64,000 nucleotides of DNA from a bacterium (GCA_965203325.1 OZ241875.1:992001-1056000), one strand, 5' to 3'. Positions 22,856-39,722 are shown, numbered from the stretch's first letter. Translations and numbers: made by a program. The notes: generated by a model not told the origin, from the sequence alone.

Positions 22856-23152
22856 GTTCGGTCATGGGGTGATAACCTAGTCGATGCCGAAGACAATGTA
22901 GGATTTACGCGGTGTAGCCGGCTTGAACTGGTGTTTTCCTGTTTCTCATCACCCCACCAGCGAACGCTTACGACGAGGACCCACCCAGCCCAGCATGCGC
23001 AGGAGTTGTAAATCATCCGCTTCCGTTTTGATTACATCTTATAAAAACCGATTTCCGAGCGAGATTCGCAAAATAGAAATACCCGAAATACTTTCAACAA
23101 ACTACAAAGATTACTCCCCCGCTGGAAATCCCCGGCTGTCGGAAAACACGCG
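22856..23152 (+). repeat. Structured non-coding repeat, copy A of 3
   Basis: GTTCG..GGGGTGATA..TAGTCGATG..AGACA..CGGTGTAG..ATCACCCC..CGAAC..CCGCTTCCGTTTTGATTAC, matching 30895-31175 and 39535-39722. Confidence 0.85.
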
Positions 23153-23186
23153 AAGCAGAGCATGGGCTTAAACGCCCCTATCAAGA

Positions 23187-24380
23187 TTAGGTATCTTCGC
23201 TAATCTCTGGGTTGGGTTCGACGTGGAATGCAATATCAAAAACCTTTTGTCCCGTTCCCTCGACAGTGCATGTCGCTGACTTCAAATTAGCAAGGGGTAG
23301 ATTCTGGTTAAATCCCTCGAGAAAATATTTCGCCGTATCAAAGGCCATCTTTGGCGTCACCTTAGTTCCAGGCATTTCATAGTTAGTCTCCTGTTCTTGA
23401 TTGAGATTATACCTCTGATCATAATACCGAAAGTTAACTTTCATCGTCATAATAGCTCCTACATGTTTAGCGTTATCAAAGTGTCGTTGTGATAACGAGT
23501 CCCCAAACATCGGCATGGCCGCTTCCTGAGCGATCAGCTTAGCAATACACAGTGAAAGCAAACAAAGCACTTCCGCTGTTTCCTGCTCATGAGGTAGCCA
23601 GGCATTTTTGCGCTTGAGGTTTCCATGAAAATAGAAGCCTCTCTTTTCGACGAGATGATCGATTACTGCTTCAGGCGTCGGAAATGCTGAAATCAGTTTT
23701 TCTGTATCAGAATTCCGAGAATGCGTCGGGAACCTGCATTCCTTAAGTGCATTTCCAACAATTGACACAAATTCAATATTTCTTTTTAGAGCATTTTTGA
23801 GTTGTCCAGCCTTATATTTTCCGTCGCCGTAGAGAGACTCAACCAATAAGAAAGAATAACGAAATGAGTCAATATATCTTCCTTGCAACATCTCTGTTCG
23901 CGCCATTTTGAAAAGATTTGCCTCCAACTTTGGGGCTATCCCTGTTTCTGCTGCCATAATCGCACGAGAGAAAAGGTGGTATGGCACGATCAATGGGGGT
24001 TTGTCGTTTTTAGATTTGAAACTCTTTATCTCAATCTCTTTCTCTTCCTCTTTTGTCTCCCCGATGTACTTGGCCTCTATCTCATCAGCAAGAATTTCCA
24101 CATCGAAATAACACTGGAAATACGCCTGCATCTCTTCCAGTTGCATTTTTACGAATGGCAGTAGTTTATCACGCCCATTCATGGTGAATGCGACTTCCCC
24201 TTCTTCGTGCCTCTCCAACATTGGTGCCATATCCACCGATTGACCTGAGAAACTGATTTCAAAGGCAATTACCACCCCATCTTGTGATACAGCGCGGAAC
24301 TCACCACCCATGATAGGAATAGGCCAATGATCTTCGATGTAGATCGGCTCTCTGAGTTCCACGAGGTATCGAATAAGCAT
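23187..24380 (-). CDS. Hypothetical protein with HEPN-like Rx4H motif
   Basis: 397 aa, visibly AT-rich. SFRYSFLLVESL followed later by KRGFYFHG (R-x4-H). Confidence 0.65.
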   Translation of the reverse strand: MLIRYLVELREPIYIEDHWPIPIMGGEFRAVSQDGVVIAFEISFSGQSVDMAPMLERHEEGEVAFTMNGRDKLLPFVKMQLEEMQAYFQCYFDVEILADEIEAKYIGETKEEEKEIEIKSFKSKNDKPPLIVPYHLFSRAIMAAETGIAPKLEANLFKMARTEMLQGRYIDSFRYSFLLVESLYGDGKYKAGQLKNALKRNIEFVSIVGNALKECRFPTHSRNSDTEKLISAFPTPEAVIDHLVEKRGFYFHGNLKRKNAWLPHEQETAEVLCLLSLCIAKLIAQEAAMPMFGDSLSQRHFDNAKHVGAIMTMKVNFRYYDQRYNLNQEQETNYEMPGTKVTPKMAFDTAKYFLEGFNQNLPLANLKSATCTVEGTGQKVFDIAFHVEPNPEISEDT

Positions 24381-24650
24381 GATCTAAATTGATATCCCTA
24401 GACGACTCCGGTTTGTTCTTGATTTATCCCCGAATCTATCGCCTTATATATAGCTGAAATCTCTTGCGCCGCCTCATTTAAATTTTACACTTCATTATAC
24501 CCTGCCTCGTGATCATTGAAGATACTCAAAGTTCGGCTCGCGATCTTCCTCTACGACCATCGAATCGTTTTATTCACTGAACATATGGATGGTCAACCAT
24601 GCAATGCGGCGCAGACGGCCATCGGGGCAGCCCTTACGGGATTTTTGCGT

Positions 24651-24850
24651 CAACTTCAAAACCGCCGCGACCCTTCGCGCCGCGTCGGTGAAGTGCTGGA
24701 TTTCCTCGGACTTGAAGAGGCGGCCAAGGACGTCATGTTCTCTATAGAAGAGCCATTTTTTCTAGACCCGATACCTGCCGAATTATGTCGCCTGACGGTG
24801 GGGCGGACATCCAGCCAGAAGGCGCTCCCGCTCCGATAAACATCAAAGCC
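24651..24850 (-). pseudogene. Decayed C-terminus of a Type ISP R-M enzyme
   Basis: Across a frameshift and a stop it reads FDVY..AFW.DV..TV / GRYRV*KKWLFYREHDVLGRLFKSEEIQHFTDAARRVAAVL, resembling the LlaBIII-like C-terminal motif GGYQVLKKWLSYRE. Confidence 0.7.
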
Positions 24851-25004
24851 AGAGAGCAAAACTACCTTCCCGCTCTCCACATCAAGCACATCGTTTGTGG
24901 CGGACGTCGCCCGGGAATGATAGGGTATAAAAGCTGGTGCGCGTATTCAATAACGCGTCACGGTGCGGCTAGGGTGCCGCAGCCTGCGAGGGGAACCGGG
25001 CGTG

Positions 25005-25325
25005 ATGAACAGTCGAGTTTTCTGGCTCTGGTTTGCGCTCGGCGCGATTCCTTTCTGGAGTGCGTTTGCGGCCGACGCGATTCTCGCCTCGCTGAATGCG
25101 CGTTTCCTGTCGGGAATCTTTCAATTTGCGCTGCAAATCTACTCCATTCCCGGCGTCATCGTTTCTCTTCCGATTCTGAATCTCGTCGCAAGTCCGTGGT
25201 GGGCCATTGGCGTCATCGGCATCCTGAACGGCGCCGCCTACGGGTTTTCCGCATGGCTGATTGCGCGCTTGATGCGCACGCGGCGTTCGACGCCGCCGTC
25301 GCGGGAGCCTACGGGTGGAAAGTGA
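25005..25325 (+). CDS. Possible small membrane protein
   Basis: Hydrophobic segments (VFWLWFALGAIPFWSAF; WWAIGVIGILNGAAYGFSAWLIA). Its 3' end runs into the MmeI-like remnant. Confidence 0.35.
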   Translation: MNSRVFWLWFALGAIPFWSAFAADAILASLNARFLSGIFQFALQIYSIPGVIVSLPILNLVASPWWAIGVIGILNGAAYGFSAWLIARLMRTRRSTPPSREPTGGK

Positions 25326-25368
25326 CATTTCAGAAAACGAAGCGTTGCAGAACCTGCTCACGTTGAAT
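25271..25368 (+). pseudogene. Frameshifted C-terminal fragment of an MmeI-like (type IIL/IIG) R-M enzyme
   Basis: DAHAAFDAAVAGAYGW / SDISENEALQNLLTLN across a frameshift, matching the AHxxLDxAVxxAYGW...LLxLN tail. Confidence 0.65.
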
Positions 25369-25581
25369 CCGGCGAGCGGGGAGTGGGGCAATCGAACCGT
25401 GATGTGCGATTCTACATGGCTTTCAACCCCTGACAGAACCGGACCGCCATGGTCCATTACGCCTGCCATAACCGTTGTACACAGGGAATTATATCGTTGA
25501 CTGCGATCACCCTGAACCAGACTTGTTTTTAATCGAAAGCCAACGGGGGTTCAACGCAGCCTTCCTTAATGGAGATACGAG

Positions 25582-26313
25582 ATGATCAATGGCTCAGTGA
25601 TCGCTCCCTTTCGACATGATTCGACTTGGCCCGACGGTGTGTTAACGCAGTTCCGTTCGGCCGTCTACTATCTTTATGTGCCTGTCCCCGGACGCGCCCC
25701 CGCAAACTACTTGCGGGAATTGATACTGCAGGAACTGCGCAAGGGGAAGTCGCAAGAAACGTCAACCCAATGGAAATACTTGAAGGACGCCTGTGACAAG
25801 GTAGTCCACTTGGCACTCAAGGGCGTCAACGACGAAGATATGTTCAATCTTGTCAAGAACCTCTTGATTTTTGCGAACCTGTTGCTTGTCTCGGATTACG
25901 GCCTCGAATCATCATCCTCTATGCGGTTTGAGCCTGACGAGTCGGCGAAGAAAGAAGAATATGAAATGGGACGGAAGACAGCAAGGGAACGATTCTCGGC
26001 GAGGATCGACCATGCGTACGAAAGCCTGGAAATCGCCGTTGAGAAATTGAGACAGAGTGATGGTAGCCTGCGCGGGTCGTTGAGGTTGGAAAAGGGAGTA
26101 GCCGTGCTTTCTTCCATCTCGAGTTTTCATCATGACATCAACGCACAAGATGTTTCCAAGGTGAAAATGGTCTGGGTGAAACACGACACCGACAGATGCG
26201 AGTATGAATTCCGTCCTCATGATCCCATTGGATGGGTGATGATGAGCGGCAATCGTTCGAATGACAGATTCGCTGATGACGCTATGTCGAGCATGGGAGT
26301 GTTTGGAAAGTAG
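25582..26313 (+). CDS. Hypothetical protein (243 aa)
   Basis: GGAG SD and protein-like composition; no motif recognised. Confidence 0.6.
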   Translation: MINGSVIAPFRHDSTWPDGVLTQFRSAVYYLYVPVPGRAPANYLRELILQELRKGKSQETSTQWKYLKDACDKVVHLALKGVNDEDMFNLVKNLLIFANLLLVSDYGLESSSSMRFEPDESAKKEEYEMGRKTARERFSARIDHAYESLEIAVEKLRQSDGSLRGSLRLEKGVAVLSSISSFHHDINAQDVSKVKMVWVKHDTDRCEYEFRPHDPIGWVMMSGNRSNDRFADDAMSSMGVFGK

Positions 26314-26570
26314 AACGTCTTGGTTTTCCCTTCGGTGAAATCAACGATGTAATTCCCTGTACTCGAAACGAATCCGTATAACGTAATCGATGGTAGTAGC
26401 GGCATCGGGGCATGTGGCGGGGCTGACTCCCGATGCTGCGCGTCGTAGTACCGTCGTGGTGCATCACACACTCCCGGCGCTTCGAGCCGTTTTGAATTTC
26501 AGATCCAGCGGCCGTACCTGCGGCGCCCGCGGGAACGGGAAGGCGGCGCCACGACACGGGGACTCATCGC

Positions 26571-26900
26571 CTAGGCAATGATGCTTCCGACCTTTTCGGT
26601 GGTCTCGACGAGGTGGGCGTATTCCACCATGGAGCTATGTAGCCGATGCCCGAGCAGCTTGATGAGCAAGGGTAGGTTCTCGCCCGACATGACGGCGTGG
26701 CTTGCCGCCGTGTGCCGCAGGTCATGCAGCTGAACCTTGCCCAGCTTCGCGTCATCGCAGACCGCGCGCCAGCATGCGACGATGTTGGTGGGCGACTTTC
26801 GCCCGGCGTTCTTCGGGAACAGGAAGGCGTCCCGGTCGCAGAGGTCGGGCAATGACTCGACGACGGCTTGCGGGGCCTCGCCAAACCGTACGGTCCGCGG
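26571..26900 (-). pseudogene. Tyrosine integrase C-terminal remnant
   Basis: LHDLRHTAASHAVMSGENLPLLIKLLGHR...YAHL (HxxR, LLGH, Y); the N-terminal part is missing. Confidence 0.8.
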
Positions 26901-27334
26901 ACCTGCTGGTGACGCGCACGGATTCGTACGCGGCGGCGGGCCTGGCCGAAGCCGGGGCGAAGACGAACCGGCTGCGGCGGCGGCTTGAGGGTTCGCGGAC
27001 GCTGCTCTTCGGCGGGACCCCGTGCTTACGCCCCCGGTGGAAGTGGGCTTCCGCTATGACGGGGGCGTCACGGAGACGGGCGGGGGCCTCAAGGCCTCGC
27101 TCACCGAACCCCCCAGCGGGTAGCTGACCGAGAACGCGTTCTGCTCTGCGGCGCACTGGTAGGCGGAAACGGCGCCCGTCCCGCCGGAAGGCGAACGGCG
27201 CGGGCAGGGTCGGTAAAAAATCCATGGCTGCATGATTCGGCGTGTGGATGTTTTCACCCTCGGGAAGGGGGGAACCGCTCCCCTACCCGGCAGTTTTCAA
27301 CAACCCCGGCGACGACTTCTTGCGGAAAGCGGCT

Positions 27335-27817
27335 GGTAAGCGTTTATCCAGGCCGTGATGGAGTGGATCTCACTGCCGAGCGGCTCCCGCTTAACGCCGA
27401 CATCTATTAGATAAACCGATATTGGAATGTTACTCAAGTACCGCAAACGCCTGAGGATACTACTGAACTGAATAGTGGAGAAAGTATTGAGCAGGACCAA
27501 TTACGTTCGGACAGGACCTCAAACTGCCGCTATCTAGGTGCTGTCATCACGGCTTGGATAAACGCTTATTGCGTCAGGCTAAGCTCTGGAAGGGAGGATG
27601 TGATGACAGCGCCTGAATAGCGGCAGTTTTGTGTCCTGTTCAGCTGTAATTTGTGTGGCTCAATGCTTTCGCCACCATCCAAGTCGGCAGGCTCTCCAAG
27701 CAATTTCGGCGCATGGGCAGCATTCCGATATCGACCTACATCTCATAGAGGTCGGTCTCAATCCGGACCGGGTCGACGCAGAAACCTACTCCGTCACGGC
27801 CTGGCTGAACGGTTACC
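27335..27817. repeat. Long diverged inverted duplication with a third copy of a 24-bp core
   Basis: 27335-27550 is the diverged reverse complement of 27600-27817. The core CATCACGGCYTGGATAAACGCTTA also occurs at 27545-27568. Confidence 0.8.
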
Positions 27818-27829
27818 GTTGCTGAGCAC

Positions 27830-28933
27830 CTAGAAATACCTGCAGCGCATCAGTTCGTTTATTGTTCGCTGAAGGTCCGCCAGGAAGTTCTCATCAATGG
27901 TGTCCGTCCACCAATGTGCGATGTCATCCCTGTAGCCGGTCAGCTCCCGCAGCGTCTTCTTGCCGGCGACAACTACGTTGTCTTCCCTGACATTTCCCTG
28001 GTAACCCAGGCACGTCTCTGCTGTCTCTGCCAACGATTGCCACAACCGCAAGTACTGGAGTCGTTGATAGGAATCGTCCTTGCGCTCATCGCTGTACATG
28101 GAGTTGATTAACAGCGCCATATGCGGAGTCCCCATGTCCGGTTCCATAGCAGCAATGGCTTTTCGAATCTCTGACGCCTTGCACCTGAAAGCCTTTGAAT
28201 CCATCACAGTTGCTGTACCCAGTCTCGCTGACGCCGTAGGTCGCATCATCACCACGAAGCGGCCATCGTCCGTCACGAGGCAACTCTGCTCCACGTATTT
28301 GCGTATCGGATCCGGCGTCTGCTGGCCCACACGGACGCCCGCCAGTATCATGTTAACCAGTTGTTGATTTCCGGGCAGTTCCGGCCACGCACCGTCTAAA
28401 GTAGCCCAAGCGGTTATGAACTTCTCGCCCTCCCTGCCGCCGACCAATGCGGGCATTTTTTCACCATCGCGTACAATTACTTCGTCCAAAACACTGCATT
28501 CACCCTTGAGCATCTCGACCGGCGTCAATTCGTTATATTCCTCGATGACCAAGAACACAGGCACTCTGCCATTTTGCTGGACTCTGACCTTCTTATCGGT
28601 TTCGGCAACCACGTGCCGCAGAGAAGGGCTGATAGCATAATGCCTGTTGTGCGTCGCGTTCTCGAAATAATCAACCAGGTTCGAGAGGACACACGCTTGA
28701 ACCGAGGGAGACGTATAAATGGTGTGATGAGGATCCTCACCGTTCGGACGGAAGTCGATTTGCGGGAACTCGAAAATCTGTGTTCGGCAATGCCCACTGA
28801 TTGTGCAACAAAATTCTTTGCCGCCTATACCCTCGTACATCATCCGTAGTCCGGCTAGAGAAAAGTGGGCCTTTGGAGGGATCGGCTGCAGGGACTTCTG
28901 ACGATCCGCTACTGTTCGGCTCTTTCTCGTCAT
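27830..28933 (-). CDS. Hypothetical protein with C-terminal HEPN-like domain
   Basis: YLRLWQSLAE...YRDDIAHW (R-x4-H) near the C-terminus; GGAG SD. Confidence 0.7.
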   Translation of the reverse strand: MTRKSRTVADRQKSLQPIPPKAHFSLAGLRMMYEGIGGKEFCCTISGHCRTQIFEFPQIDFRPNGEDPHHTIYTSPSVQACVLSNLVDYFENATHNRHYAISPSLRHVVAETDKKVRVQQNGRVPVFLVIEEYNELTPVEMLKGECSVLDEVIVRDGEKMPALVGGREGEKFITAWATLDGAWPELPGNQQLVNMILAGVRVGQQTPDPIRKYVEQSCLVTDDGRFVVMMRPTASARLGTATVMDSKAFRCKASEIRKAIAAMEPDMGTPHMALLINSMYSDERKDDSYQRLQYLRLWQSLAETAETCLGYQGNVREDNVVVAGKKTLRELTGYRDDIAHWWTDTIDENFLADLQRTINELMRCRYF

Positions 28934-29156
28934 GATGAATTTACTCCCTCCATTGTTGCCATTCCGCCTCCCGTCCTTGGCCTAGTCGCCGAGTTAAGAT
29001 CAGCCCGCGGTTTCCGGCCAATTCAGCAACTTGTCCATTAGATTCTTTCGCTCTCCACAGCTTCGTGTCGAACTAGCATTTCTCATGCTGCGTGGCGTAG
29101 AACCTGCGGCAGTTGCATCGATCGATCCGAGCGTCACGCAGTCCCACCGATCGTCG

Positions 29157-29672
29157 TTATGTGGGTTTATCTTCTTCCATGAGAACCAATTCGCCGAGCA
29201 CCCATTCATGCCAGCGCCTCGTGTATGCTGGACGCAAGGTGGTTCTTGACCGGTAACCGACATCATCGAGGAGTCCCTCGAGCGACACCAGCCGCTCCCG
29301 GTACCCAAGCCGGACGCCGCAACGAAGACTGGCCCGGTCCGGTCCGCACAAGACCCATGCGTCGGTCCGGATCAGCGCATGCGCCCAAAGCGAAGCCTCT
29401 CCCCTGTCCAGTGCGATATCGGGAATTCGAACGGCCAACCCTGCGCGTTCGCGGTTTCTGACCGGATGGACCGCTTTCAGGGAATCTCGCAGCTCGGCGG
29501 CGTCGACTTGCAACTCCGGCCGGCGACGCTGGAAACCCGTCTGCGTTTCAGCGACGCAATCCTCGACGGTTTCCACCCGGTAGCCGCCGGTCAGCGCTCG
29601 CCACGAGCCTGTCCGGTAGGCCTCCAGCATGACGTTCGTATCGACCAGCACTGCGTTCTGATGTCGAGCCAT
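29157..29672 (-). CDS. PIN-domain-like protein (putative toxin)
   Basis: VLVDTNVMLE...LDRGEASL...GPDRAS; 6 bp downstream of the XRE-ImmA gene. Confidence 0.75.
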   Translation of the reverse strand: MARHQNAVLVDTNVMLEAYRTGSWRALTGGYRVETVEDCVAETQTGFQRRRPELQVDAAELRDSLKAVHPVRNRERAGLAVRIPDIALDRGEASLWAHALIRTDAWVLCGPDRASLRCGVRLGYRERLVSLEGLLDDVGYRSRTTLRPAYTRRWHEWVLGELVLMEEDKPT

Positions 29673-29678
29673 GACGCA

Positions 29679-30785
29679 TCACAGGTCGATTGCGCATCGG
29701 ACGTCATGCGCTGCAAAGAGATCCACGAGGTCCTCGACGCTCAGGTCGAGCAAACCGGCGACACGCCGCACCGAGACGCAACCCTCCTCTAACGCGAGTC
29801 CGAGCACCTCCATGAAGGGTCTCGAGAACAGGGCGGGCGGGATGTTCTCGGCGACGTCTGGCCTGTTGTTGCGCAATGCCGCATCCGGCAGGGAACGCGC
29901 AGCCGCAGGTTTCAATTCGCCGAGCGCGACCAGCCGCCATTTCAGCGCCGAGGCCGTCACGCCAAACTCGTTCGCCACCGCGTTCAGCTTCCCGGTCAAA
30001 TCATCCTGAACGAGGTTCGACCAGTTCCCGAACCGCGCCAGGATAGCGGCCGGCATCAGAACCGCCGCCGCGAAGTTGTTGGCGAGTTGCTCGGCGCGGT
30101 TGCCTCCGGTCTCCATCGCTTCCTCGGAGTGTTCGGGCGGCATCGCATCCCAAGTCAGGATGTGAAAGAGCTCATGGGCGAGATCGAAGTGACGGCGTCC
30201 GACAACCTCGCGTCGTGCGATCAGCACCGCGTCGAGTTCGGGCAGGCGGCAGGCCGCGCCCGAGATGCCGCGTTCGGCATCCATCATGAGAACCAGGATG
30301 CCGAGTTCACGTTCCATGACTTCCACGAGGCGCACAGCGGGGACCTCGCCGAGATCGAATTCGGTGACGAACCGTTCGCCAGCCGACATGGCATCCTCAA
30401 AACGCGAACGGCGAGTGAGGCCGAGCGCCCGCCTCATTAGCGGGGTTTCGTAACCGACCTGTGGCGCCAGGGTGCGGAACGCGGCGATCCAACGTCCGGC
30501 GCTGCGTTCACAGGCTTCAAGCCGTTCAGCGCCGACGCCGGTCTGGCGCCAGGAGAAGCGTCCTTCGCCCGCTAGCCGGAACGGATCGGTGAAGTACTCG
30601 ATCGGAGCGTCCAGTCTTTCGACCGCGAGTAATAATTCCTCCGCCGTCACGCGTCTGGCGCCCGTCTCGATGGCCGATACCGTCTGCCGGTCCCTGAAAC
30701 CGAAGATCTCCGCTACACTCTCCTGCGAGAGCCTGCGTTCCTCTCGCAATGCCTTGATCCGCCTGCCGATAAGCCCTGTCGTCAT
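29679..30785 (-). CDS. XRE HTH + ImmA/IrrE (M78) Zn metallopeptidase
   Basis: N-term HTH IKALREERRLSQESVAE; HELFH (HExxH); EQLANNFAAAVLMP. Confidence 0.92.
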   Translation of the reverse strand: MTTGLIGRRIKALREERRLSQESVAEIFGFRDRQTVSAIETGARRVTAEELLLAVERLDAPIEYFTDPFRLAGEGRFSWRQTGVGAERLEACERSAGRWIAAFRTLAPQVGYETPLMRRALGLTRRSRFEDAMSAGERFVTEFDLGEVPAVRLVEVMERELGILVLMMDAERGISGAACRLPELDAVLIARREVVGRRHFDLAHELFHILTWDAMPPEHSEEAMETGGNRAEQLANNFAAAVLMPAAILARFGNWSNLVQDDLTGKLNAVANEFGVTASALKWRLVALGELKPAAARSLPDAALRNNRPDVAENIPPALFSRPFMEVLGLALEEGCVSVRRVAGLLDLSVEDLVDLFAAHDVRCAIDL

Positions 30786-30811
30786 CAGAACCCTCCCGCG
30801 AATAAGAAATC

Positions 30812-30831: not shown

Positions 30832-30894
30832 TTATTTTATGCGTTTTGCAAGCTGCTTTCAAAGCCACATCAAGATTTCTTACGACTCGTAATG

Positions 30895-31175: not shown

Positions 31176-31198
31176 GGAGAGCGGGATGCGCGCTCCTC

Positions 31199-31256: not shown

Positions 31257-32120
31257 GCCGAACGCGCCGACGTACGCCCCGGTGTCGAAGGCGCCGAAGG
31301 CCTCCTCGTGGCCGGGGCCGTGGAAGCGGCCGGACAGGCGGTCCGTGCCGGGCGCGCCTTTCGCGAAGGCGCCGCCGGAGAGCCGCATGCCGCGCCATTC
31401 GAGCGCCACGCCGGCGCCGCCGTCGTCGAGGTCGACGTCCACGTCGACCAGGGGCCGCGCGAGGTCCGCGATCCGCAGCTCGGCGGTGCCGGGGAGGCGC
31501 GCGAAGTCGCGGGTCCGCGCCGCCTCGGCGATGCCGCTCCAGGTCGCGCCGCCCGTACCCGCCGGGTTCGTCCCCGACGGCTCGCCCGCCGCCCAAGCGT
31601 GCGCCGCACGGAACGTGCCGGTCCAGGTCTGCCCGTCCGCCTCGGCCGTGAGCGCGCCCGCGCCAATCTCCACCGCCGCGTAGCCGTGCACGCCCCAGAA
31701 GCCGTGGCGCGTGAACTCCGCCCCGGTGACCGTCGCCGACGCCCCGGCGAAGGCCCGCGTGAGCGGGGGCCCGCCCGTCGCGCCGCTCGCCGTGGCGAAC
31801 CCGGCCCGCATGCCCGTGCCCGCGCGGCCCGCGAGCGCCCGCAGGTCCTCCGCCGGGCAGCCGGCGCCGGGGCAGCCGAGCGGCGTCGACCCGGTCTCCC
31901 CGATCGGCTCTTCTCCCGCGCGCGTGAGTTCATAATCGAAATAAAGCCCCGAGACGAGCGGCGCGGCGGGTTCGCCGGCCGCGGGCGGCGGCTGTGTGTC
32001 GGGAGGCCGTGTTTCGGGAGGCCGTGTGGACGGCGGCGCCGACGTGTTCCCGCCACCGCAGGCGGCGAGGGTCAGCGCGCACGCGAGCGCGGCGGCGCAA
32101 CAAAGTATCCGGTGTGTCAT
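31242..32120 (-). CDS. Lipoprotein with TbpB-like C-terminal beta-barrel
   Basis: Lipobox LTLAAC followed by GGG and a Pro-rich linker; C-term GRFHGPGHEEAFGAFD...VGAFGAKRQ; AAGGAG SD. Confidence 0.8.
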   Translation of the reverse strand: MTHRILCCAAALACALTLAACGGGNTSAPPSTRPPETRPPDTQPPPAAGEPAAPLVSGLYFDYELTRAGEEPIGETGSTPLGCPGAGCPAEDLRALAGRAGTGMRAGFATASGATGGPPLTRAFAGASATVTGAEFTRHGFWGVHGYAAVEIGAGALTAEADGQTWTGTFRAAHAWAAGEPSGTNPAGTGGATWSGIAEAARTRDFARLPGTAELRIADLARPLVDVDVDLDDGGAGVALEWRGMRLSGGAFAKGAPGTDRLSGRFHGPGHEEAFGAFDTGAYVGAFGAKRQ

Positions 32121-32172
32121 GAGAGTCGTTCTCCTTTCAGATCGGAGGCATGTCCGCATCGGCGCATCCCCC

Positions 32173-35100
32173 TCAGAACCGCAGGCTGAGGTCGAGCCCC
32201 AGTTCGTGCTCGGGCTCGGACACGGCGCTCTCGCGCCGCTCGCCCGCCAGTTCCACGCGAAGGTCCGCGCCCCGCGCCTCGTACCGCGCACCGAGCCTGA
32301 GGCGCCGGCTCTCCCCGCCGGCGAGGCCGGCTTCCGCGAACGGCGTCAGCACCCCGCCCGACGCCGTCCCGAACCCGTAGCCGACCTGCGCGTCGAGCGC
32401 GCCGTCGTCGCCCGAAGCCGCCGGGTTCGGCATCTCCTCCGCCCACAGCGCCCGCGCGCCGCCCGTTCCCGCGCCCCAGCGGGGCGCGAGCGCGAAGAAC
32501 AGGCCGCGGCCGCCGGCGCCCGGACCGGCGCGCACCGTCAGGCTCACGCCCCGCTCCTCCGCACCCTCCTCGCTGTGCGCCGCCAGCCACCGCCCGCGCA
32601 TCTCCACCGAAACCCCGGGCGCCGCGTAGCGCACGCCGCCGGCGAGCTCGAACCCGCTGCCCTTAAGCCCGTCGCCGCCGTCGTGGCGCACCGCCGCCTC
32701 CAGGAAGGGCTCCAGGCTGCTCTCGCCCGCCAGCGCGAAGCGCCGCGAGGCCTCGAGCCCCGCCCGCAGCCGCCAGCTGTCGGCGGAGAGCCCGTGGATC
32801 GCGTCCGGGCCGTCATCGGTCTCCATCTGCGTGACGCTCGCGTCGGCGCGCACCGCCAGCGCCGCGCCGGCGAGTCCGCCGAGCGCACGCCTGACCCCCA
32901 CCGACGCCATCCGCATCGTGAGGTCGCCGGTCTCCGCGTCCGCGTCCCCGGGCTCGTGGCGCGCCTCGCCCCAGCCCGCGCCCGCCACCGCGCGCAGCTC
33001 CAGGCCGTCCGCGAGCGTCCAGCGCCCGTAGGGATAGACCGCCGTCAGCGTCGTCTCCAGCCGGCCCCGGCCGGTGAGCGCGCCCCCGGCGAAGGAATAA
33101 TCCGCCTCGCCCGTCCCGTGGCTCACCGCGAGGCCCGCCACCCACGGGTCCGAGCGCCCGTCCACGCCCAGCCAGCCCGTGCGCAGCTTCCCGTCGTAGC
33201 GGAGCCCCGTCTCGCCGCCTCCCGCGAACGTCCCGAGGTCCCCCCGGCCCCACACCGCCCACTGCGGCGCCGCCGGGCCGGCGTCCTCCGCCGAGGCGAG
33301 ACGCACCGAGAAGGCGCTCGCGCCGAACAGGTCGGACGCCGCAAGCGCCCGGCTCTCCGTGCAGCCCGAAGCCGGCACAAGGCCGGCGGCGGCGTACCGC
33401 TCCGGCGCGCAATCGCGCAGCGCGTAGGCCGCGGCGGAACCATCGAGCGACACCGCCTGCCCGGCCAGCGTCACGCCGCTCGCGCCGATGTCGGCGAACC
33501 TGCTCCCGATGTTGTCCAGCGCGCTCGCCGTCGCCCTTCTCACCACCGCCGCCAGCGCGCGCCTCACAGCGCCCTCAACCGCCGCGCGCCGCGGGTCCGC
33601 CGCCACCGCGACCGCGAAGGTGAGCGCCGCCTCGTCGCCGTCCGCGTCCCGCACCGTCCAGGTGTAGCGCACAGGCCTCTGCGACCGCGACGGCGTGCCG
33701 CTCAGCCTCCGCGTGCCTAAGTCGAGGCTCAGCCCCGGGGGCGGGGAAGGCGCCAGGCGGTAGGTCAGCGTCCCGTCGCCGCCCGTCGCCGCCGGAAGCG
33801 CCAGCGCCGCGATCGCCGTGCCCGCCGTCCATGACTGGTCCGCGACCGCCGCGTCGCCGAACGACGGCATCAGGTTCTCCTCCACCTCGACCGTGAAGGT
33901 GAGCGCCGCCTCATCCCCGTCCGCGTCCCGCACCGTCCAGGTGTAGCGCACCGGCCCCTGCGCCGCCTCCGGCGTGCCGCTCAGCGTGCGCGCGCCTGAG
34001 TCCAGCGCCAGGCCCGAAGGCGGCTCGGGCGTCAGGCGGTAGGTCAGTGTCCCGTCGCCGCCCCTCGCCCGGGGCAGCGTCAGCGCCGTGATCGCCGTGT
34101 TCTGCTTGTACGACTGTGCGGCGACCGCCGCGGACCCGAAGCTCGGCGTCAGGTCCGGCGCTGCGCCTCCGCCGCCGCCTCCGCCGCCTACATTGCCGCC
34201 GCCTCCGCCTACATTGCCGCCGCCCCCGCCGCCGCGGTCGTCGTCCCGGATCGTAATCTGCACAGAACGCGGGCTGCCCGCCGTCACCTCAGACGGCAGC
34301 GTCCCCAGCGCCACCGTGAACGTCTCGTCGTCGGTGTCGCTGTCCTGCGCCGTGGTGATGGTCCCCGTTCCGTTGGTCGCGCCCGAGGCGATCGTGATGC
34401 CCGTCAGCGTCCCGTGGTCCTCGGGCTCGGCCGTGCCGTCGGTGATCGTCAGCGGTATCGTCACGCTGCTCGACAGCGCCGCCGACAGCGTCGCCGTCAC
34501 GGTCACGCTCGATCCCTCCGCCACCGTCGGCGAGGCCGACAGCGTCACCGTGGGCGTGGTCGTGTCCAGCGTCGCCACGGCCCCCTCGGTCGTGCCCGTC
34601 GCGTGCGCCCAGAAGCCCTTGCCGCTCGCGTTCTCCGCGCGCACCCGCACCCGGTAGGTCGTGCCGTCGTCGAGGCCCGTGATGGCCTGCGAGGCCGCCG
34701 TGCCGCTGCGGCTCACCGCCACCCATTCCGTCGCCACGTTCGTGCCCACGGCCGCGCCGGCGGCGACCGTGTTCGATGCGGTATAGTGCACGTCGTAGCC
34801 CGTCAGCGTCCCCGAGGGCGCCGTCCAGGCGAGGTCCAGCCTGCCGTCGCCGGGCGTCACCGCCAGGCCCGCCGGCGCGGCCGGCGCGTTCTGCGCATGC
34901 CGCGTGACGGTGACCGTCCAGGTCGTGTTGGCCCCCTGCCCCAGCGTCGACGACGCCACCACCTCGATGGCGTTCGCGCCGGCGTCCAGCGCGATCGCCC
35001 CGCTCGTGTCGCCGCTTGTCAGCGACACCGCGGCGGCGCCCCGCTTGCCCACCGACAGCACGTACCCCCCCAGCACGCCGACCGTCGGCCTCGCCTTCAC

Positions 35101-37257
35101 GTGCGTCACCGCGTGCGGCACCGCCGCCGTGTAGTCCGTCACGCGCGGCGAGAAGCCCGGGCTCAGCGCCAGCGCGTCGTAGCTCGCATTCTCGCCCTGC
35201 GCCTTGGTGAGCGCCAGGCCCGTCAGCAGCAGGCCCTCCGGCGTGCCCGCGCCCTCCACCCAGGGGCTCACCAGCCTTCCGCCGGCGTTGCTCGCTCGCA
35301 CCCGCACCCGGTAGCGCTGCAGGTTCCGGCCCCTGACCGTGTACGAGGTCGCCGTGGCATCGTTGTGGGGCCCGCTCGCGCGCTGGAGCGCCACCCAGCC
35401 CACGGCCTCGTCGACGCCGCGCGCGCGGGCGTCCGCCGCGACGGCGGTCGAGGTGGTGTAGTCCACCCAGTAGGCCGTCACCGTCCCCACCGGCGGCGCC
35501 GTCCACGACAGGTCCAGCTTCCCGTCGCCCGGCGTCACCGTCAGGCCGGTCGGCGCCGCGGGCGCCAGCGCGGCCTCCACCGGCGCCGTCCACACGCCCG
35601 CGGACATGCCGTCGCGCTTCACCGAGCGCACCCGCACCAGGTAGGTCTCGCCGACGGCGAGGCCCGTGAAGGTGTGGCTCGTGCCCGTCACGTCCGTGTC
35701 GGTGTTCGGCCAGGCCGCGGCCGACTTCAGCTTGCTCTGCACCTCGTAGCGCGCCACGTCCACACCCGCCGGCGCCTTCCAGCGCGCCGTCAGCTCGCGG
35801 TCTCCCGGCCTCAGCGTCAGGCCCGAGGGGACGTTCGACGTCGGCGTGCCGGTGGCGAAGACGTAAGCGCCCTCCGGGCCCGCCGTGCGCAGGCGCACCC
35901 GGTACGCCCTGCCGTTGGTCAGGCCGGTAATCGTGTACGAGGTGTCGGTGTCGTCGACATCAGCAGACACGGCCACCCAGTGCGTGGCCGCGTTCGAGCC
36001 CGAGCTCGCCGCGGCGTCGGCGACCGCGCCGGCGCCCGTCCTCGGCGCCGAGGTGTAGTCCAGCTCGTACGCCACGAAATCCCCGTCGGGCCGGGTCCAG
36101 GTTACGAGGAGCTGCGCATTGCCCGGCGTGACCGTCAGGCCGGGCAGGCCGAGCGCCTCCGGCGTGCCGGCGCCGAACGCCCAGGCGCCGTCGCCCCCGG
36201 CGCTCGTCGCCCGCACCCGCACCCGGTGGGCAGACCCGCTCGGCAATTTGCCAATCCTGTGCGAGGTCCTCGCGCCGTGACCGTTGCGGGACACCGCCAC
36301 CCAGCCAGTCGCGCCGTTGGTGCCGGCTTGCACCGCCGCGTCGTTCGCGACCGTGCCCACGGCCGCCGACGTGTAGTGCACGTCGTAGCCCGTCACCGTC
36401 CCCGGCGGCGCCGTCCACGACACGTCCAGCCGCGTCGGGCCCGGCGTGACGCGCAGACCCGTCGGCGCGGCCAGCGGCACCGCCGCGCCGTTGACGCGGA
36501 TTTTCATCGACCGACCATGAGCTTCGGCGGTCCAGGTCGACGAAGCGGTCGGCGCGGCCGATCCGTTTCGAAAGAAGTTACCTGCGTTGGCGATGCTCCA
36601 GCCGGCGGCCGCTCCGCTGTCTTCCGCATCCTTGGCGTTATGCGTGAGCTCAAAGGTGGAGAGAGTCTCGGCAGTGGTGTAAACGACCACGTGGTATTCG
36701 GTGCTCGCCGCGAGCGTGGTGCCTGCCGGTGCCGAAAAGGTGGAGGCCCTTGCGCCCGTCGCAAAGCTCGAAGGAACCGTCAGGTCCGCGAGCTTCGACC
36801 CGGGCTTGCCGCTGCTGGATGACCAAAGCTCCGCCTCGATCGTCGCAATCTGCTGCGCGGTCAGGGCGGCGGTAAAGACGTTCGTACGTATCTCGATGCT
36901 TTCGAGGGTGTAGCCGCCGCCGTTGGAGCCTGTCGTGAAGCCTTGAGCGCGGGCGAATACTCTGGCCGTTTGCAGGTTATCTAACCCCGTCTGCCCGATG
37001 TTGCTCACCAACACATCGGCGGCGGCCGGGGCGGCGGCGAACGGGGAGAGCGCCGCAAGCAGCAGCGCGAGGACGGGAAGGAGACGGAAGCGGCGGGCGC
37101 GGGGGCGCCCGGTGCGCGGCTCAGGCTTGCGCCCGGAACCTGGCCGGGAATGCGGGACGCCGTTCGGGCCGCTCGTGCCGCCCTTTTCTTCGGATGACGG
37201 ATGACGGACCATGCCGCCCCCGGTTGCAAGCCTCTCCATGCGATGTCTCATTTTCAT
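32173..37257 (-). CDS. Large autotransporter-like surface protein with fibronectin type III, cadherin-like, Calx-beta-like and Ig (He_PIG-like) repeats
   Basis: Signal peptide LLPVLALLLAALSPFAAAPAAA. About five Fn3 units (APxGLxVTPG..LxxxWxAP..Y.V.Y..RVRVRA), two YTWTVRDADGDEAALTF repeats and a Gly-rich linker. C-terminal barrel ends LGLDLSLRF. Exact start uncertain. Confidence 0.88.
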   Translation of the reverse strand: MKMRHRMERLATGGGMVRHPSSEEKGGTSGPNGVPHSRPGSGRKPEPRTGRPRARRFRLLPVLALLLAALSPFAAAPAAADVLVSNIGQTGLDNLQTARVFARAQGFTTGSNGGGYTLESIEIRTNVFTAALTAQQIATIEAELWSSSSGKPGSKLADLTVPSSFATGARASTFSAPAGTTLAASTEYHVVVYTTAETLSTFELTHNAKDAEDSGAAAGWSIANAGNFFRNGSAAPTASSTWTAEAHGRSMKIRVNGAAVPLAAPTGLRVTPGPTRLDVSWTAPPGTVTGYDVHYTSAAVGTVANDAAVQAGTNGATGWVAVSRNGHGARTSHRIGKLPSGSAHRVRVRATSAGGDGAWAFGAGTPEALGLPGLTVTPGNAQLLVTWTRPDGDFVAYELDYTSAPRTGAGAVADAAASSGSNAATHWVAVSADVDDTDTSYTITGLTNGRAYRVRLRTAGPEGAYVFATGTPTSNVPSGLTLRPGDRELTARWKAPAGVDVARYEVQSKLKSAAAWPNTDTDVTGTSHTFTGLAVGETYLVRVRSVKRDGMSAGVWTAPVEAALAPAAPTGLTVTPGDGKLDLSWTAPPVGTVTAYWVDYTTSTAVAADARARGVDEAVGWVALQRASGPHNDATATSYTVRGRNLQRYRVRVRASNAGGRLVSPWVEGAGTPEGLLLTGLALTKAQGENASYDALALSPGFSPRVTDYTAAVPHAVTHVKARPTVGVLGGYVLSVGKRGAAAVSLTSGDTSGAIALDAGANAIEVVASSTLGQGANTTWTVTVTRHAQNAPAAPAGLAVTPGDGRLDLAWTAPSGTLTGYDVHYTASNTVAAGAAVGTNVATEWVAVSRSGTAASQAITGLDDGTTYRVRVRAENASGKGFWAHATGTTEGAVATLDTTTPTVTLSASPTVAEGSSVTVTATLSAALSSSVTIPLTITDGTAEPEDHGTLTGITIASGATNGTGTITTAQDSDTDDETFTVALGTLPSEVTAGSPRSVQITIRDDDRGGGGGGNVGGGGGNVGGGGGGGGAAPDLTPSFGSAAVAAQSYKQNTAITALTLPRARGGDGTLTYRLTPEPPSGLALDSGARTLSGTPEAAQGPVRYTWTVRDADGDEAALTFTVEVEENLMPSFGDAAVADQSWTAGTAIAALALPAATGGDGTLTYRLAPSPPPGLSLDLGTRRLSGTPSRSQRPVRYTWTVRDADGDEAALTFAVAVAADPRRAAVEGAVRRALAAVVRRATASALDNIGSRFADIGASGVTLAGQAVSLDGSAAAYALRDCAPERYAAAGLVPASGCTESRALAASDLFGASAFSVRLASAEDAGPAAPQWAVWGRGDLGTFAGGGETGLRYDGKLRTGWLGVDGRSDPWVAGLAVSHGTGEADYSFAGGALTGRGRLETTLTAVYPYGRWTLADGLELRAVAGAGWGEARHEPGDADAETGDLTMRMASVGVRRALGGLAGAALAVRADASVTQMETDDGPDAIHGLSADSWRLRAGLEASRRFALAGESSLEPFLEAAVRHDGGDGLKGSGFELAGGVRYAAPGVSVEMRGRWLAAHSEEGAEERGVSLTVRAGPGAGGRGLFFALAPRWGAGTGGARALWAEEMPNPAASGDDGALDAQVGYGFGTASGGVLTPFAEAGLAGGESRRLRLGARYEARGADLRVELAGERRESAVSEPEHELGLDLSLRF

Positions 37258-37342
37258 TTTCCGGGTCCTTCCCTCTGGTGGAATCCTCAGAGCCGAACAA
37301 AGATGCGAATCCGCCTGATATTCGCCATGCTTCCGCCGGGGA

Positions 37343-37398
37343 CCGCCCGGCGGACGTGCCGGGCGACCCCCTGGAGGAAACCGCTACTGCCGGTTCGC
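37343..37398. repeat. ~57-bp direct repeat with hairpin, right copy
   Basis: CCGCCCGGCGGACGTGCCGGGCGACCCCCTGGAGGAAACCGC-TACTGCCGGTTCGC. Confidence 0.85.
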
Positions 37399-37504
37399 CG
37401 TATCCCGGGCAGCTCGAAATACGGTAGACTTGCGGACTCGCAGTCCGGGCCGGTGGTTCCGCGAGACAAGAATCCCTGCGGTATGCGCCCACCTCGAACC
37501 CGGG

Positions 37505-37718
37505 CTGGTGTCCGCTAATTGCCGTTATTGGCCCCCAGAAGCCTTGTTTTCCGCCGAAAAACCCGTTTCGGGGGGCATTCGGGCCGCAAATGAGCGAAAG
37601 GTGAGCGAAAAAAGGCGCAAAACGGCGCCCGAAACCCCTCCGGGGACCCCGGAATTGCGCTTGACATGGCCGTGAGAGGTGTTAAATTTTCTGATAACGG
37701 CAATTATCGGACTCCAGA
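37505..37718. promoter_or_regulatory. Candidate invertible promoter segment bounded by two inverted lox-like sites
   Basis: Left site CCGCTAA-TTGCCG-TTATTGG (spacer 37519-37524); right site CTGATAA-CGGCAA-TTATCGG (spacer 37698-37703). Inside: TTGACA (37661-37666), 16 bp, TAAATT with an extended TG. Confidence 0.7.
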
Positions 37719-37723
37719 AACCC

Positions 37724-37762
37724 GCCGTTTCGCCGGTATTCCCCTGCGAAACGGCTTTTTTT
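37724..37762 (+). terminator. Intrinsic terminator immediately right of the invertible segment
   Basis: Perfect 10-bp stem GCCGTTTCGC/GCGAAACGGC followed by T7. Confidence 0.8.
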
Positions 37763-37825
37763 GTGGAAATTCCCCGTCGTCGTCTATATTTGGTAATCGA
37801 CGAGGCCCTGGAGCGGCCTCAGGGA

Positions 37826-38005
37826 ATGGAAACGGCCGCCGATCTGGCGAAGGCGTCGATGTCTGAGAACACGCGGCGGGCGTACGGGACGGCGCTCAGG
37901 GTATTCGAGCGCTCGGGAAACCCCGAGACCGACGCCGGGATAGCGGCGTACCTGGGGGATCTCTACGAGGGGGGCACTCGGCGGCCGTGGCCGCGATGGC
38001 GAGGC
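37826..38005 (+). pseudogene. N-terminal fragment of a Cre-like tyrosine recombinase
   Basis: METAADLAKASMSENTRRAYGTALRVFE...DAGIAAYLGDLYEGG, then frameshift and loss of similarity. Confidence 0.65.
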
Positions 38006-38110
38006 TGCGCTACGGGCGGTGAGGTCCGCCCGGCGTTTCGTCGTGAGCATGTCCTTCGCGGCGGGCAGGTCCGCCGCGTGCAGGACGCCCGTCTTCTCCC
38101 GAATATCTCT

Positions 38111-38821
38111 CTACCGCCTCTTCTTTCTCCGGGCGGCTCTCTCCTCGGACGTGGAAGTCCATCTCCGCGCGGAGGCCCACTTCTCGAGGTCTTCGAGCAG
38201 GTAGCGCACCCGGTATCCGGTGCGAAGAAAATCCGGCCCCTCTCCGCTCACGCGGTAGCGCTCCAGCGTCTTGGGCGAGAGGCCGAGCCAGGCGGCCGCC
38301 TCCCGCGTGTTCAGGTGGTTCTCCTCCGTGCGCTCATCGGCGTCCCCGGGTTCCACGGCGGCGTCCCACGTCCCGTCGAACGGATCGGGCAAGTCCGCGA
38401 GCCTCTCGCGTATAACGCGGATTTCCTCTCGCGTCGCGTTGGCCGCCATCCAGGCGCGCACCCGGTCGAAGGTCTTGAGATACGGCGAGGCGCCCCGGCG
38501 CAGCCGCCCCACGAAGGAGGGATTCCCCACGGCCTCCTCGCCCAGGATCGAGACCTTGGTCCTGCTCACCGCGAGGAACGCCTCGACCTCGGCCCGCAGG
38601 AGCGGTCCCAGGGGCGGATACCCCATGAACGCGAGCACCCGGTCCGCCGTGTCGACCCGCAGGGGCCGCCCCCGGGCCTGCAGTCCCACGAAGCCGGGAA
38701 TGCCCAGCGCGCCCACCCCGAAGCGCCTCGCGCTCATCCCTCGGCGCGCGCGCCAGAGCGCAATGCTCCGGCGCATTCGCTCGTCCAGCGGGGTGCCGGT
38801 ATCGTCGTCGAACGCGGTCAT
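38111..38821 (-). CDS. DNA-binding protein: two Cro-like repeats plus a C-terminal AlpA/excisionase-type HTH
   Basis: HLNTREAAAWLGLSPKTLERYRVSGEGPDF...VRY; duplicated ..G.P.FV..L.RG.....T.DRV.A.M unit. Confidence 0.8.
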   Translation of the reverse strand: MTAFDDDTGTPLDERMRRSIALWRARRGMSARRFGVGALGIPGFVGLQARGRPLRVDTADRVLAFMGYPPLGPLLRAEVEAFLAVSRTKVSILGEEAVGNPSFVGRLRRGASPYLKTFDRVRAWMAANATREEIRVIRERLADLPDPFDGTWDAAVEPGDADERTEENHLNTREAAAWLGLSPKTLERYRVSGEGPDFLRTGYRVRYLLEDLEKWASARRWTSTSEERAARRKKRR

Positions 38822-39089
38822 GGCGCGCGAACATAAGGAAAGGACGAGCGCCCGTTCAATCGTTGTTTCTAGCGCAGAAGGTACACCCGGGAAGAGTCCG
38901 CGAGCGCGTCCGTGCGCGGGTCGCTCATCGGTTCAGCCTGAAATCAAGGGGGTTTTCCGGAAAACGAGGGTCGCTAGAGAACGTGCAGCGAGGCGCTGCG
39001 GAAAAAAAGGAAAGACGCCGCCCCCCGGGCGAGAGCTCGAAAACCTCTTTCGTTCACGCCGCAGTGGGCTGTTTCGCGAGTCGTCCCTG

Positions 39090-39185
39090 CGAATGACCGG
39101 CGATTGGCGGCGCCCGGCGAGTTGCATCTCGACCGGAGAAGCCCCTGCCATGGCAAGGCGCTGCGCGCTGCCCGTGCGCAGGTCG
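39090..39185 (-). pseudogene. C-terminal fragment of a Cre-like tyrosine recombinase
   Basis: DLRTGSAQRLAMAGASPVEMQLAGRRQSP resembles HSLRVGxAQxLAxAGASxxEMQxAGRWxS; the catalytic H and Y are not retained. Confidence 0.65.
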
Positions 39186-39409
39186 AAACGGCGCCGATTT
39201 CCTTGTTTCATTCGTTTTTATCGCATCGTATGCTGATGTTCCGGGTCGTCCGCCGAATACAATACGGCCAAGCCGAAACAGGCGGACATTCCTTCGTGGA
39301 TTGTATGCCAACGGCCCGGATTCTGGAGGACATATAAAATATCCGGCCGGGCAGGCGGGGCGCAGCAATGCCTCCGCCTACCCGGCCTGCCACCCCAGTA
39401 ATCATTCTC

Positions 39410-39722
39410 TCATGGGGTGATGAGCATCAAAAATTCGCCGACCCGAATCGGATACGCCGTGCCATACCAACAACTGCCTCTGAGCCTTGTGGTATTATCA
39501 CCCTGCCAACGAACGATTTACCGGTCTTGTAAACGTTCGGCGGCAGGGTGATAATTTAGTCGATGCCGGAGACATTTGTAGGAATTGCACGGTGTAGCTA
39601 GCTTCAGTTGGTGTTTTCCAGTTCCTAATCACCCCACGACCGAACGTATACCCGGTCTTCGACGACTCGCGCCCCCTGGGATGCTCCGGGGTTGTACTGA
39701 GGCCGCTTGCGTTTTGATTACA
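39410..39722 (+). repeat. Structured non-coding repeat, copy C of 3 (39535-39722), preceded by an extra hairpin unit
   Basis: Same motif order as copies A and B. Extra unit GGGGTGATGA...TTATCACCC..CGAAC at 39410-39515. Perfect 14-bp IR at 39494-39507 / 39542-39555. Confidence 0.85.

Follow-up and report, generated by a model that had tools for sequence, protein, structure and literature searches.

A composite repeat family in the window

We analysed a 64,000-nt stretch of bacterial DNA, the window (OZ241875.1:992001–1056000), which belongs to a genome of 4.39 Mb designated G000; positions are those of the window unless marked G000. A preliminary description had pointed to a triplicated element on the plus strand, with copies at 22856–23152 (A), 30895–31175 (B) and 39535–39722 (C), and had regarded it as either a structured RNA or the end of a mobile unit stacked in tandem. 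The sequence bears out the three same-strand copies at these coordinates, and the blocks listed as common to them were all found in the order described. As had also been proposed, A and B are located near the 3′ ends of minus-strand cargo genes, their right edges lying 35 and 67 nt before the stops at 23187 and 31242, respectively. The three copies are real, but "triplicated" proved to be an undercount, since an inverted hairpin copy, D, lies at 39398–39518 and the family has 58 matches in the genome.

The family was delimited with two profiles. The first was built from A, B and C and identified 58 places in the genome; the second, a refined profile of 226 positions representing only the non-hairpin part of the element (M2), was searched with nhmmer at E ≤ 0.01 and also gave 58 matches, 43 of which cover at least 150 model positions. 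The repeat family of A, B and C is far beyond chance. About ten M2 matches end at or just past model positions 97–99, corresponding to the C of GATTAC, and a few of the weakest matches (E ~0.003) are stretches upstream of integrase genes. Judged by its sequence, the element is a composite of an optional hairpin and a separate M2 block. The hairpin is an imperfect palindrome of ~110 bp (GTTCGG..GGGGTGATAA ... TCATCACCCC..CGAAC), for which a profile search of the genome identified 12 sites, 11 of them directly upstream of an M2 copy; relative to M2 it is direct in four cases and inverted in seven, and it stands alone in one. M2 is ~225 bp long and holds the near-invariant word TTTGATTAC. Its left half (~100 bp) ends in CCGCTTnCGnTTTGATTAC, and its right half, with the final letters ..CTGAAAACACGCG, has a constant length of 122–125 nt in 21 canonical copies; the M2 copies are ~51% identical on average (range 35–95%). 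The word TTTGATTAC occurs 59 times in the genome, against 9.5 occurrences expected from base composition, and ~49 of the 59 copies fall within M2, integrase-upstream regions and one attB-side repeat. In the window it is located at 23027–23035 in A, 31052–31060 in B and 39713–39721 in C.

Copies A and B consist of a hairpin and a full-length M2; in copy C, the inverted D is followed by the copy's own hairpin and by an M2 whose sequence leaves the common form after GATTAC. In copy A, the hairpin (22856–22965, plus strand) has 79–91% identity to sequences in seven other genomes of the genus, and the full-length M2 (22940–23160, plus strand; nhmmer positions 5–220 of 226, E = 8e-47), whose right half ends in ..AAAACACGCG at 23152, contains no open reading frame (ORF) and no conserved fold. 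The hairpin of copy B (30895–30995, plus strand) is degraded, with a 9-nt deletion in its inner part, and is accompanied by a full-length M2 (30973–31188, plus strand; nhmmer positions 6–225, E = 7.6e-48) with its right edge, ..ACACGCG, at 31175. This M2 forms the left boundary of a high-GC unit encoding an FN3-repeat protein. The right flank of B is 88–95% identical to that of a copy at G000 3364977, whereas the M2 sequences of the two are only ~61–64% identical. Copy D is a minus-strand nhmmer match to profile positions 12–132; D-type hairpins are present at all four C-type island ends of G000, and the other three ends have no C-type hairpin. The hairpin of copy C (39535–39645, plus strand) is itself an extra insertion or duplication, and a sister island in the relative G012 lacks it (window 39529–39627). 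The M2 left half of C (39621–39786, plus strand) matches nhmmer positions 6–162 and diverges from the full-length form past GATTAC.

The nested fold that had been proposed for each copy held in its outer part, GTTC/GAAC and GGGGTGAT/ATCACCCC being true inverted repeats, and less well in its inner part, where the stems are weak and B has its 9-nt deletion. Sixteen hairpin homologues from eight genomes of the genus were aligned; their mean identity of 87% limits the power of the test. The outer-stem cells were paired in 95.5% of cases, compared with 34–53% when the partners were slid, and the inverted repeat, which beats these controls, is real. The accompanying claim that many differences keep pairing through G-U found no statistical support: the consensus fold of 28 pairs contains no compensatory change and the covariation check on the 16 homologues found none, with 492 of 500 column shuffles reaching the observed paired percentage and 380 of 500 reaching the covariation score. 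With Rfam 15, no match at gathering score was obtained in the whole window, and none on A, B, C or D at E ≤ 1 over 22500–40000. The latter search gave three matches, two of which are one locus on both strands. A match to sRNA-Xcc1 at 39240–39328 (E = 0.36; 27.6 bits against a gathering score of 53) is below threshold and was taken as chance. RNAalifold on the 43 long M2 copies gave ~−6.5 kcal/mol for each strand with an unfavourable covariation term, and the 21 canonical right halves had mean z scores of −0.17 (plus strand) and −0.48 (minus strand) against shuffles, with no conserved fold. A coding role of the M2 right half was likewise discarded, as its recurring frame (..NSFNKLQ..) has no ATG and is interrupted by in-frame stops in several copies.

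It is highly improbable, on these results, that the hairpin, alone or together with M2, is a structured non-coding RNA gene. The well-kept outer stems in 16 homologues from eight genomes would suit such a gene, as would several one-sided changes that yield G-U on the plus strand; against it stand the 28 pairs without a compensatory change, the shuffles that equal the observed values, the missing Rfam match and the absence of a consensus fold in M2. In addition, the occurrence of the hairpin in two orientations beside M2, its degradation in B and its absence from the sister island in G012 speak against an RNA gene. Neither Rfam, covariation, folding energy nor hairpin orientation supports the structured-RNA reading, and A, B and C are best read as copies of a DNA-level junction module rather than as RNA genes.

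Island ends and attachment arms

The flanks of the island are adjacent in G012 (95–96% identity), where G000 sequence up to 969324 and that of 971400–971525 run into G000 1031775, which is window position 39775. The pattern TTC.G.A.AAT.CGAT.AAT is present once in this empty site and once at each island end in G000. By this empty site, the integrative island measures 60,269 bp, of which the rightmost 39.8 kb fall within the window, and copy C is confirmed to lie at the boundary between the island and the core genome. The island is bounded by a direct repeat of ~20 bp. Its attR core (ATTCTGGATAATACGATAAAT) is located at 39774–39794. The direct-repeat partner, at attL, falls 60,269 bp further left, beyond the window, and precedes the start of the first integrase gene by 193 nt. 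Copy C is ~50 bp inside attR, its TTTGATTAC begins ~62 nt before the attR core, and it is demonstrably part of the attP (P) arm of the 60.3-kb island. In G000, four C-type copies pair one-to-one with four integrase genes of one subfamily. The word TTTGATTAC was also considered as the crossover site of the islands and rejected, because the empty sites place the cores elsewhere.

The island targets a copy of a dispersed repeat, R160 (39775–39990, plus strand), which has 65 copies in the genome. The 5′ edge of this repeat is the attB of the island, which accounts for the many insertion sites. R160 is ~200 bp long and contains reiterated CGATAAAT motifs, and many more matches to it were found in other genomes of the genus; some R160 variants hold an inverted TTTGATTAC ~75 nt from the core. 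A homology between R160 and the M2 right half was considered and dismissed, the R160 profile matching five C-type copies only, and neither A nor B.

At the other end, the island encodes two adjacent integrases of 391 aa that are ~52% identical to each other. Both carry the domains PF13356 (Arm-DNA-bind_3; E = 2.6e-12 and 3.2e-9), PF14659 (SAM_3) and PF00589 (Phage_integrase), so that both tandem integrases are of the arm-binding type. The genome contains 11 tandem integrase pairs and seven TrwC relaxases. The pair of this island is located at G000 971718–974070, ~18–20 kb left of the window start, and the other pairs occupy ten further loci; the two genes are always adjacent and in the same order, and in another family of the class two genomes also have them in tandem.

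A second island subfamily shows a similar end with a different core. Here the empty sites of G002 and G012 define an island of ~41.9 kb that carries GACGAGCAAA at each end, and in every one of the five right ends of this subfamily the M2 left half is followed by ~98 common nt and the GACGAGCAAA core, past which the sequences diverge. In two subfamilies with different cores, a truncated M2 is thus located 50–100 bp inside the right core and points outward. An attP arm beside a core defined by an empty site was found for C and for the five truncated copies of the second subfamily, not for A or B. On the opposite arm (P′), a segment of ~65–80 nt homologous to the M2 left half also ends in TTTGATTAC and precedes the ribosome-binding site of the first integrase gene by ~15 nt. 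The word TTTGATTAC is the only one of at least 9 nt common to the P and P′ arms in both subfamilies, where it is in direct orientation, and its P′-side copy is at +167 from the core in both. Beside the left end of a subfamily-2 island, a dispersed repeat of ~220 bp was observed (L054 3559–3880; G000 ~1955058–1955380), dozens of copies of which occur across several genomes of the genus.

Internal copies and the proposed stacking of island segments

For the internal copies, the linkage between M2 and its flanks was determined pairwise. Of the 43 long copies, 38 could be anchored at GATTAC, which gave 703 pairs, and the left flank, left half, right half and right flank of each pair were compared, a segment being counted as shared at ≥85% identity. 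No segment was shared in 674 pairs. Among the others, 13 pairs shared the right flank only, seven shared the left flank and both halves without the right flank, four shared the right half only and two shared the right half together with the right flank; all four segments, both halves only and the left half only were each shared by a single pair. Not one of the 703 pairs shared the left flank without M2, which indicates that M2 travels with its left-hand DNA and that right flanks are joined at its right edge. In the alignments, identity jumps from ~60–75% to 90–100% within or just past ..AAAACACGCG. A second, rarer seam (six pairs) is at GATTAC, in agreement with the truncated copies. The BLAST end points agree with the pair linkage, although they are blurred by family resemblance: left-sharing matches stop at +98 to +237, and the starts of the right-sharing ones fall at −81 to −11 or +72 to +112. 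The right-sharing pairs mostly involve the high-GC FN3 unit, and the segment from B to C is one such unit.

Within the islands, M2 copies form same-orientation arrays, and A, B and C are on the plus strand like the integrase genes 43–60 kb to their left. Six islands have a layout in which same-orientation repeats delimit integrase-less segments beside an integrase-bearing element. The sister island in G012 shares a 16-kb backbone and the right-end unit, and it has different cargo and one internal M2. The islands are mosaics, and comparisons of 20-kb queries with five relatives were too complex to yield a clean single-cassette indel. Contigs of four runs were also compared with window 21000–40900. 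Many of the joints listed fall within the FN3 gene, which is repetitive. In another sample, the DNA of 23153–27327 is present on contigs that lack what lies left of A, and one contig begins exactly at 23153; as a sign of a cargo boundary this is only a hint, since assembly breaks caused by repeats could suffice.

Taken together, these findings lead us to propose, with a probability of roughly one half, that A, B and C are copies of an attachment-arm or junction module of stacked segments in mobilisable islands with tandem P4-type integrases; any specific enzyme or step by which the module acts is much less certain than this. The M2 left half, ending in CCGCTTnCGnTTTGATTAC, would be a protein-recognition block, and its TTTGATTAC may serve as an integrase arm site, as an outward promoter or as both, the two roles not being exclusive. 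In the excised circle, the predicted order is the HTH_17 gene (leftward), the hairpin or hairpins, the M2 left half (rightward), the core, ~165 bp, the second TTTGATTAC block and the integrases. Two TTTGATTAC blocks would then flank the crossover core in the same orientation, as expected of arm-type sites, and excision would set an outward promoter, similar to that of Pcirc in ICEclc (see below), reading into the integrase gene. A and B would represent the right-hand ends of segments stacked in the island by crossover at the M2 edge, with right-hand DNA attached where M2 ends (..AAAACACGCG) or, more rarely, directly past GATTAC; such an origin of the seams would be site-specific rather than homologous. 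The hairpin is probably a separate small palindromic element that may be present, absent or inverted. Regarding the earlier proposal of an end or attachment structure of a stacked mobile unit, the location of C in the right-end arm, the same-orientation arrays and the M2 seams are in its favour, and the lack of the proven crossover core in A and B speaks against simple tandem stacking through one att core.

Several observations weigh against this proposal. Neither proven core (TTCTG.A.AATACGAT.AAT or GACGAGCAAA) is present at the homologous position in A and B, which are therefore not simple accretion joints from the same reaction. The right-half motifs were seen only within M2 copies, without a separate partner site, and neither a contig joint linking A to B or B to C nor a circle or excision junction of these segments was seen among the joints listed. 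Moreover, near the integrase genes of some islands the M2 arrays are inverted, which one-ended stacking does not predict. As for a promoter in the left half, the sigma-70 scan did not flag the TTGnnn-17-GATTAC arrangement; crude ORF calls place the next downstream gene on the opposite strand for 30 of 43 copies, so that a promoter would drive antisense RNA; and a bare promoter would not usually have its spacer (CCGCTTnCG) so strongly conserved.

Other explanations make different use of the same evidence. M2 could be a small transcription unit in which an island-specific promoter in the left half starts an unstructured RNA of ~120 nt, or an antisense transcript extending into the convergent gene from its 3′ end, that damps or insulates the expression of cargo and integrase genes. 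Such a unit would fit the homology of the left half to the sequence that immediately precedes the ribosome-binding site in 13 integrase genes, the 17-nt spacing from the TTGnnn box to GATTAC in both contexts, the right half fixed at 122–125 nt in the 21 canonical copies, and the convergent next gene in the 30 of 43 copies, whose stop is usually within ~100 nt. We regard it as rather unlikely, given that GATTAC is a poor −10 box and drew no sigma-70 match, that neither a terminator nor a conserved fold follows past the right half, and that it would explain neither the exact exchange of right flanks at the M2 edge nor the fixed place of the truncated form beside two different att cores. That M2 copies are functionless relics of old island ends, with flanks shuffled by homologous recombination, is unlikely as well. 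Their low average identity (~51%; 35–95%), the mosaic islands with a common backbone and right-end unit and differing cargo, and the failure of a dedicated partner site to turn up are all compatible with relics. Homologous exchange, however, predicts breakpoints inside the repeat, whereas in 20 of 29 informative pairs the seam coincides with the end of homology, at the right edge; a median identity of 56–60% over ~100 bp would make a poor RecA substrate; and the motif blocks and length are kept across genera and in a second family, which argues for selection.

A relaxase could offer another way to stack segments. Relaxase sites in general consist of an inverted repeat followed by a one-sided junction, and the islands encode a TrwC relaxase-helicase, with seven in the genome, so that the hairpin and adjacent sequence could be conceived as an origin-of-transfer-like site of a TrwC-family enzyme whose recombination stacks the segments. 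The nearest M2 or hairpin copy, however, is ~35 kb from the relaxase gene, at least 43 full copies stand against seven relaxases, and ~290 bp, not a few bases, separate the main seam from the hairpin; this explanation has very little probability. A larger scheme, in which M2 is the recombination site of an integron-like system, is a speculative option that we hold with low confidence. In that scheme, multigene cassettes of 3–10 kb would be stacked, swapped and excised in a mobilisable island by the tandem integrases; one integrase might serve integration at the dispersed repeat, and the other, or a heteromer, recombination at the M2 edge. Each cassette would bring its own M2 at one end, with crossover at ..AAAACACGCG, and the cassettes would carry defence systems and phase-variable giant surface proteins.

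Cargo, distribution and relation to known systems

Besides the integrases, the island encodes a TrwC relaxase-helicase, type I restriction-modification genes, and NERD and UvrD helicases, and it is a defence island. DISARM genes for DrmA (E = 2e-201) and DrmB (E = 3e-60) occupy 13103–18282, and the type I restriction-modification genes upstream of them lie at 141–3236 and in the 5 kb before the window. The NERD-helicase ORF at 20970–22628 matches (E = 6e-43) the PADLOC model of a helicase that accompanies defence reverse transcriptases, and its neighbour, a 528-aa ORF at 19439–21025, has no family match. The cargo segment between A and B (23187–30785) holds mostly unannotatable ORFs and an HTH/IrrE (RmrA-like) regulator at 29679–30785, and no homologue of the segment was found in the five relatives searched. 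Within it, a perfect-looking 123-nt hairpin at 27514–27636, probably another palindromic repeat, gives matches on both strands to a model of a plant microRNA precursor, at scores (37.9 and 32.1 bits) far below the gathering score of 110.

The segment between B and C (31242–39368, minus strand) is a high-GC (~75%) unit comprising a 349-aa ORF, a 1694-aa FN3-repeat protein, an inverton region and an HTH_17 protein (38111–38821). The genome contains at least ten high-GC FN3 units, each between M2 copies in direct orientation. These units have 75% G+C compared with 55% for the genome and encode giant FN3, He_PIG and cadherin-like proteins of 1400–1800 aa, some of which are split into 807 + 1051 aa. 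ORFs ~480 nt past several M2 copies were rejected as antisense artefacts within the high-GC FN3 genes. At 37517–37705, the inverted repeats TAATTGCCGTTAT and ATAACGGCAATTA surround ~165 bp in an inverton-like arrangement; this segment holds a TTGACA..17..TAAATT-like promoter directed away from the giant FN3 gene, and it appears to be in the off orientation. A truncated Cre-like recombinase frame extends beyond the inverton to ~38000. The recombinase appears to have been lost here, and a full one is present in a paralogous unit (L032 6780–7715; PF00589, E = 6e-18).

Across 41 genomes, M2 was found in 20, including the genome of the window, 16 of the 22 other genomes of the genus and three of seven genomes in another family of the class; the integrase was found in 19. 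Both were present in 18 genomes and both absent from 20, M2 alone occurred in two (weak matches) and the integrase alone in one, an 87%-complete draft; the 41 genomes are kin and not independent, so that these counts do not amount to a statistical test. A scan for CCGCTTNCGTTTTGATTAC, with one genome per species, gave 90 loci, of which 80 were fetched, and 68 of the 80 were true M2 by profile. The 68 loci belong to Nitrospinota or metagenome genomes, together with four loci titled Rhodospirillaceae and one titled Acidobacteriota; M2 in these five records (L081, L092, L115, L120 and L110) reflects either spread across phyla or wrong labels or binning. The remaining 12 of the 80 loci, from unrelated taxa, are the number expected by chance. 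The conservation profile of 111 M2 copies peaks in the left half, partly by construction, as 68 of them were found through CCGCTTNCGTTTTGATTAC.

The islands measure 20–95 kb from the integrase pair to the right end. The smallest genomes of the genus (2.9–3.1 Mb, against 3.3–4.6 Mb) are among those that have neither M2 nor the integrase pair, suggesting that the islands are a major part of the variation among these sponge-associated Nitrospinota. A conserved seam for cargo exchange would explain how the islands diversify, and M2 and TTTGATTAC provide a simple sequence handle by which the ends of islands and the limits of cassettes can be located where metagenome assemblies are fragmented. Action of the tandem integrases on M2, if real, would amount to a new route to cassette arrays; otherwise, M2 would still illustrate clearly how the sequence of an attachment arm can be taken for an RNA gene. 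What gives the finding its value is the family of islands with its seams, and not a new RNA. In the literature on sponge Nitrospinota and mobile elements, the element and the island family are undescribed among the matches listed, which is a thin basis for novelty.

By analogy, the closest functional counterparts of the module would be an attP arm, a Pcirc-type site and the seams found in accreted islands. Like the attP arms of lambda- and P4-type elements, it is associated with integrases carrying Arm-DNA-bind_3; C lies 50–100 bp from a core defined by an empty site, and a conserved 9-mer, a candidate arm site, is present on both island arms in direct orientation. Unlike those systems, the islands have two tandem integrases instead of one and a single copy of the shared word per arm, and the block is dispersed in ~50 copies, most of which, A and B included, have no adjoining recognisable core. 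Pcirc of ICEclc (PMC5812530) is an outward promoter at the integrase-distal end that becomes fused upstream of the P4-type intB13 on circularisation and drives this gene only then. The mapped island ends show the same outward orientation at the integrase-distal end, and after excision the block would read across attP to the integrases; a weaker-looking homologue lies directly upstream of the island integrase gene, as Pint does in ICEclc. The predicted boxes of the islands are non-canonical, and ICEclc has one such site where the islands have dozens, and it targets a tRNA gene where they target a dispersed repeat.

The arrays of internal copies invite comparison with composite elements. Integrase-less cargo segments lie within an integrase-bearing composite island, with same-orientation, end-derived copies between them, as in ICESt1/ICESt3 and the cis-mobilisable elements (CIMEs) of Streptococcus thermophilus, whose tandem accretion Pavlovic in 2004 and Bellanger in 2011 reportedly described. 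Accretion joints carry the outer att core, whereas A and B do not, and the seams of the islands lie at the M2 edge. The hairpin alone is reminiscent of miniature inverted-repeat transposable elements (MITEs) and repetitive extragenic palindromic (REP)-like elements in its ~110-bp length, its terminal inverted repeats of ~20 bp and its multiple copies in either orientation, and in one case it is present in one and absent from the other of two sister islands. It differs from them in that no recognisable target-site duplication was found at the hairpin, the flanks themselves are conserved and partly palindromic, and 11 of its 12 sites are directly upstream of M2 instead of dispersed.

In integrons (IntI, attI and attC), attC sites are 57–141 bp long, have RYYYAAC ... 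GTTRRRY cores and lie at the 3′ end of single promoterless ORFs. The islands resemble them in arraying exchangeable cargo units, defence genes included, which are delimited by copies of an imperfectly palindromic non-coding site that all point the same way, and in having a terminal site that differs one-sidedly. In contrast, the island units are 3–10 kb long, with 8-kb segments in the window, and are multigenic and encoded on both strands; the module, which travels with its left flank whatever the gene orientation, is 225–340 bp long and has no RYYYAAC/GTTRRRY cores, the stem ending GTTC...GAAC in the opposite order. Nor are the integrases of the IntI type, their TIGR02249 scores being 38.3 and 43.1 bits against a cutoff of 265. 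Compared with all these systems, the new aspect is a dispersed, arm-derived module, in ~50 copies, that marks exchangeable multigene segments in tandem-integrase islands.

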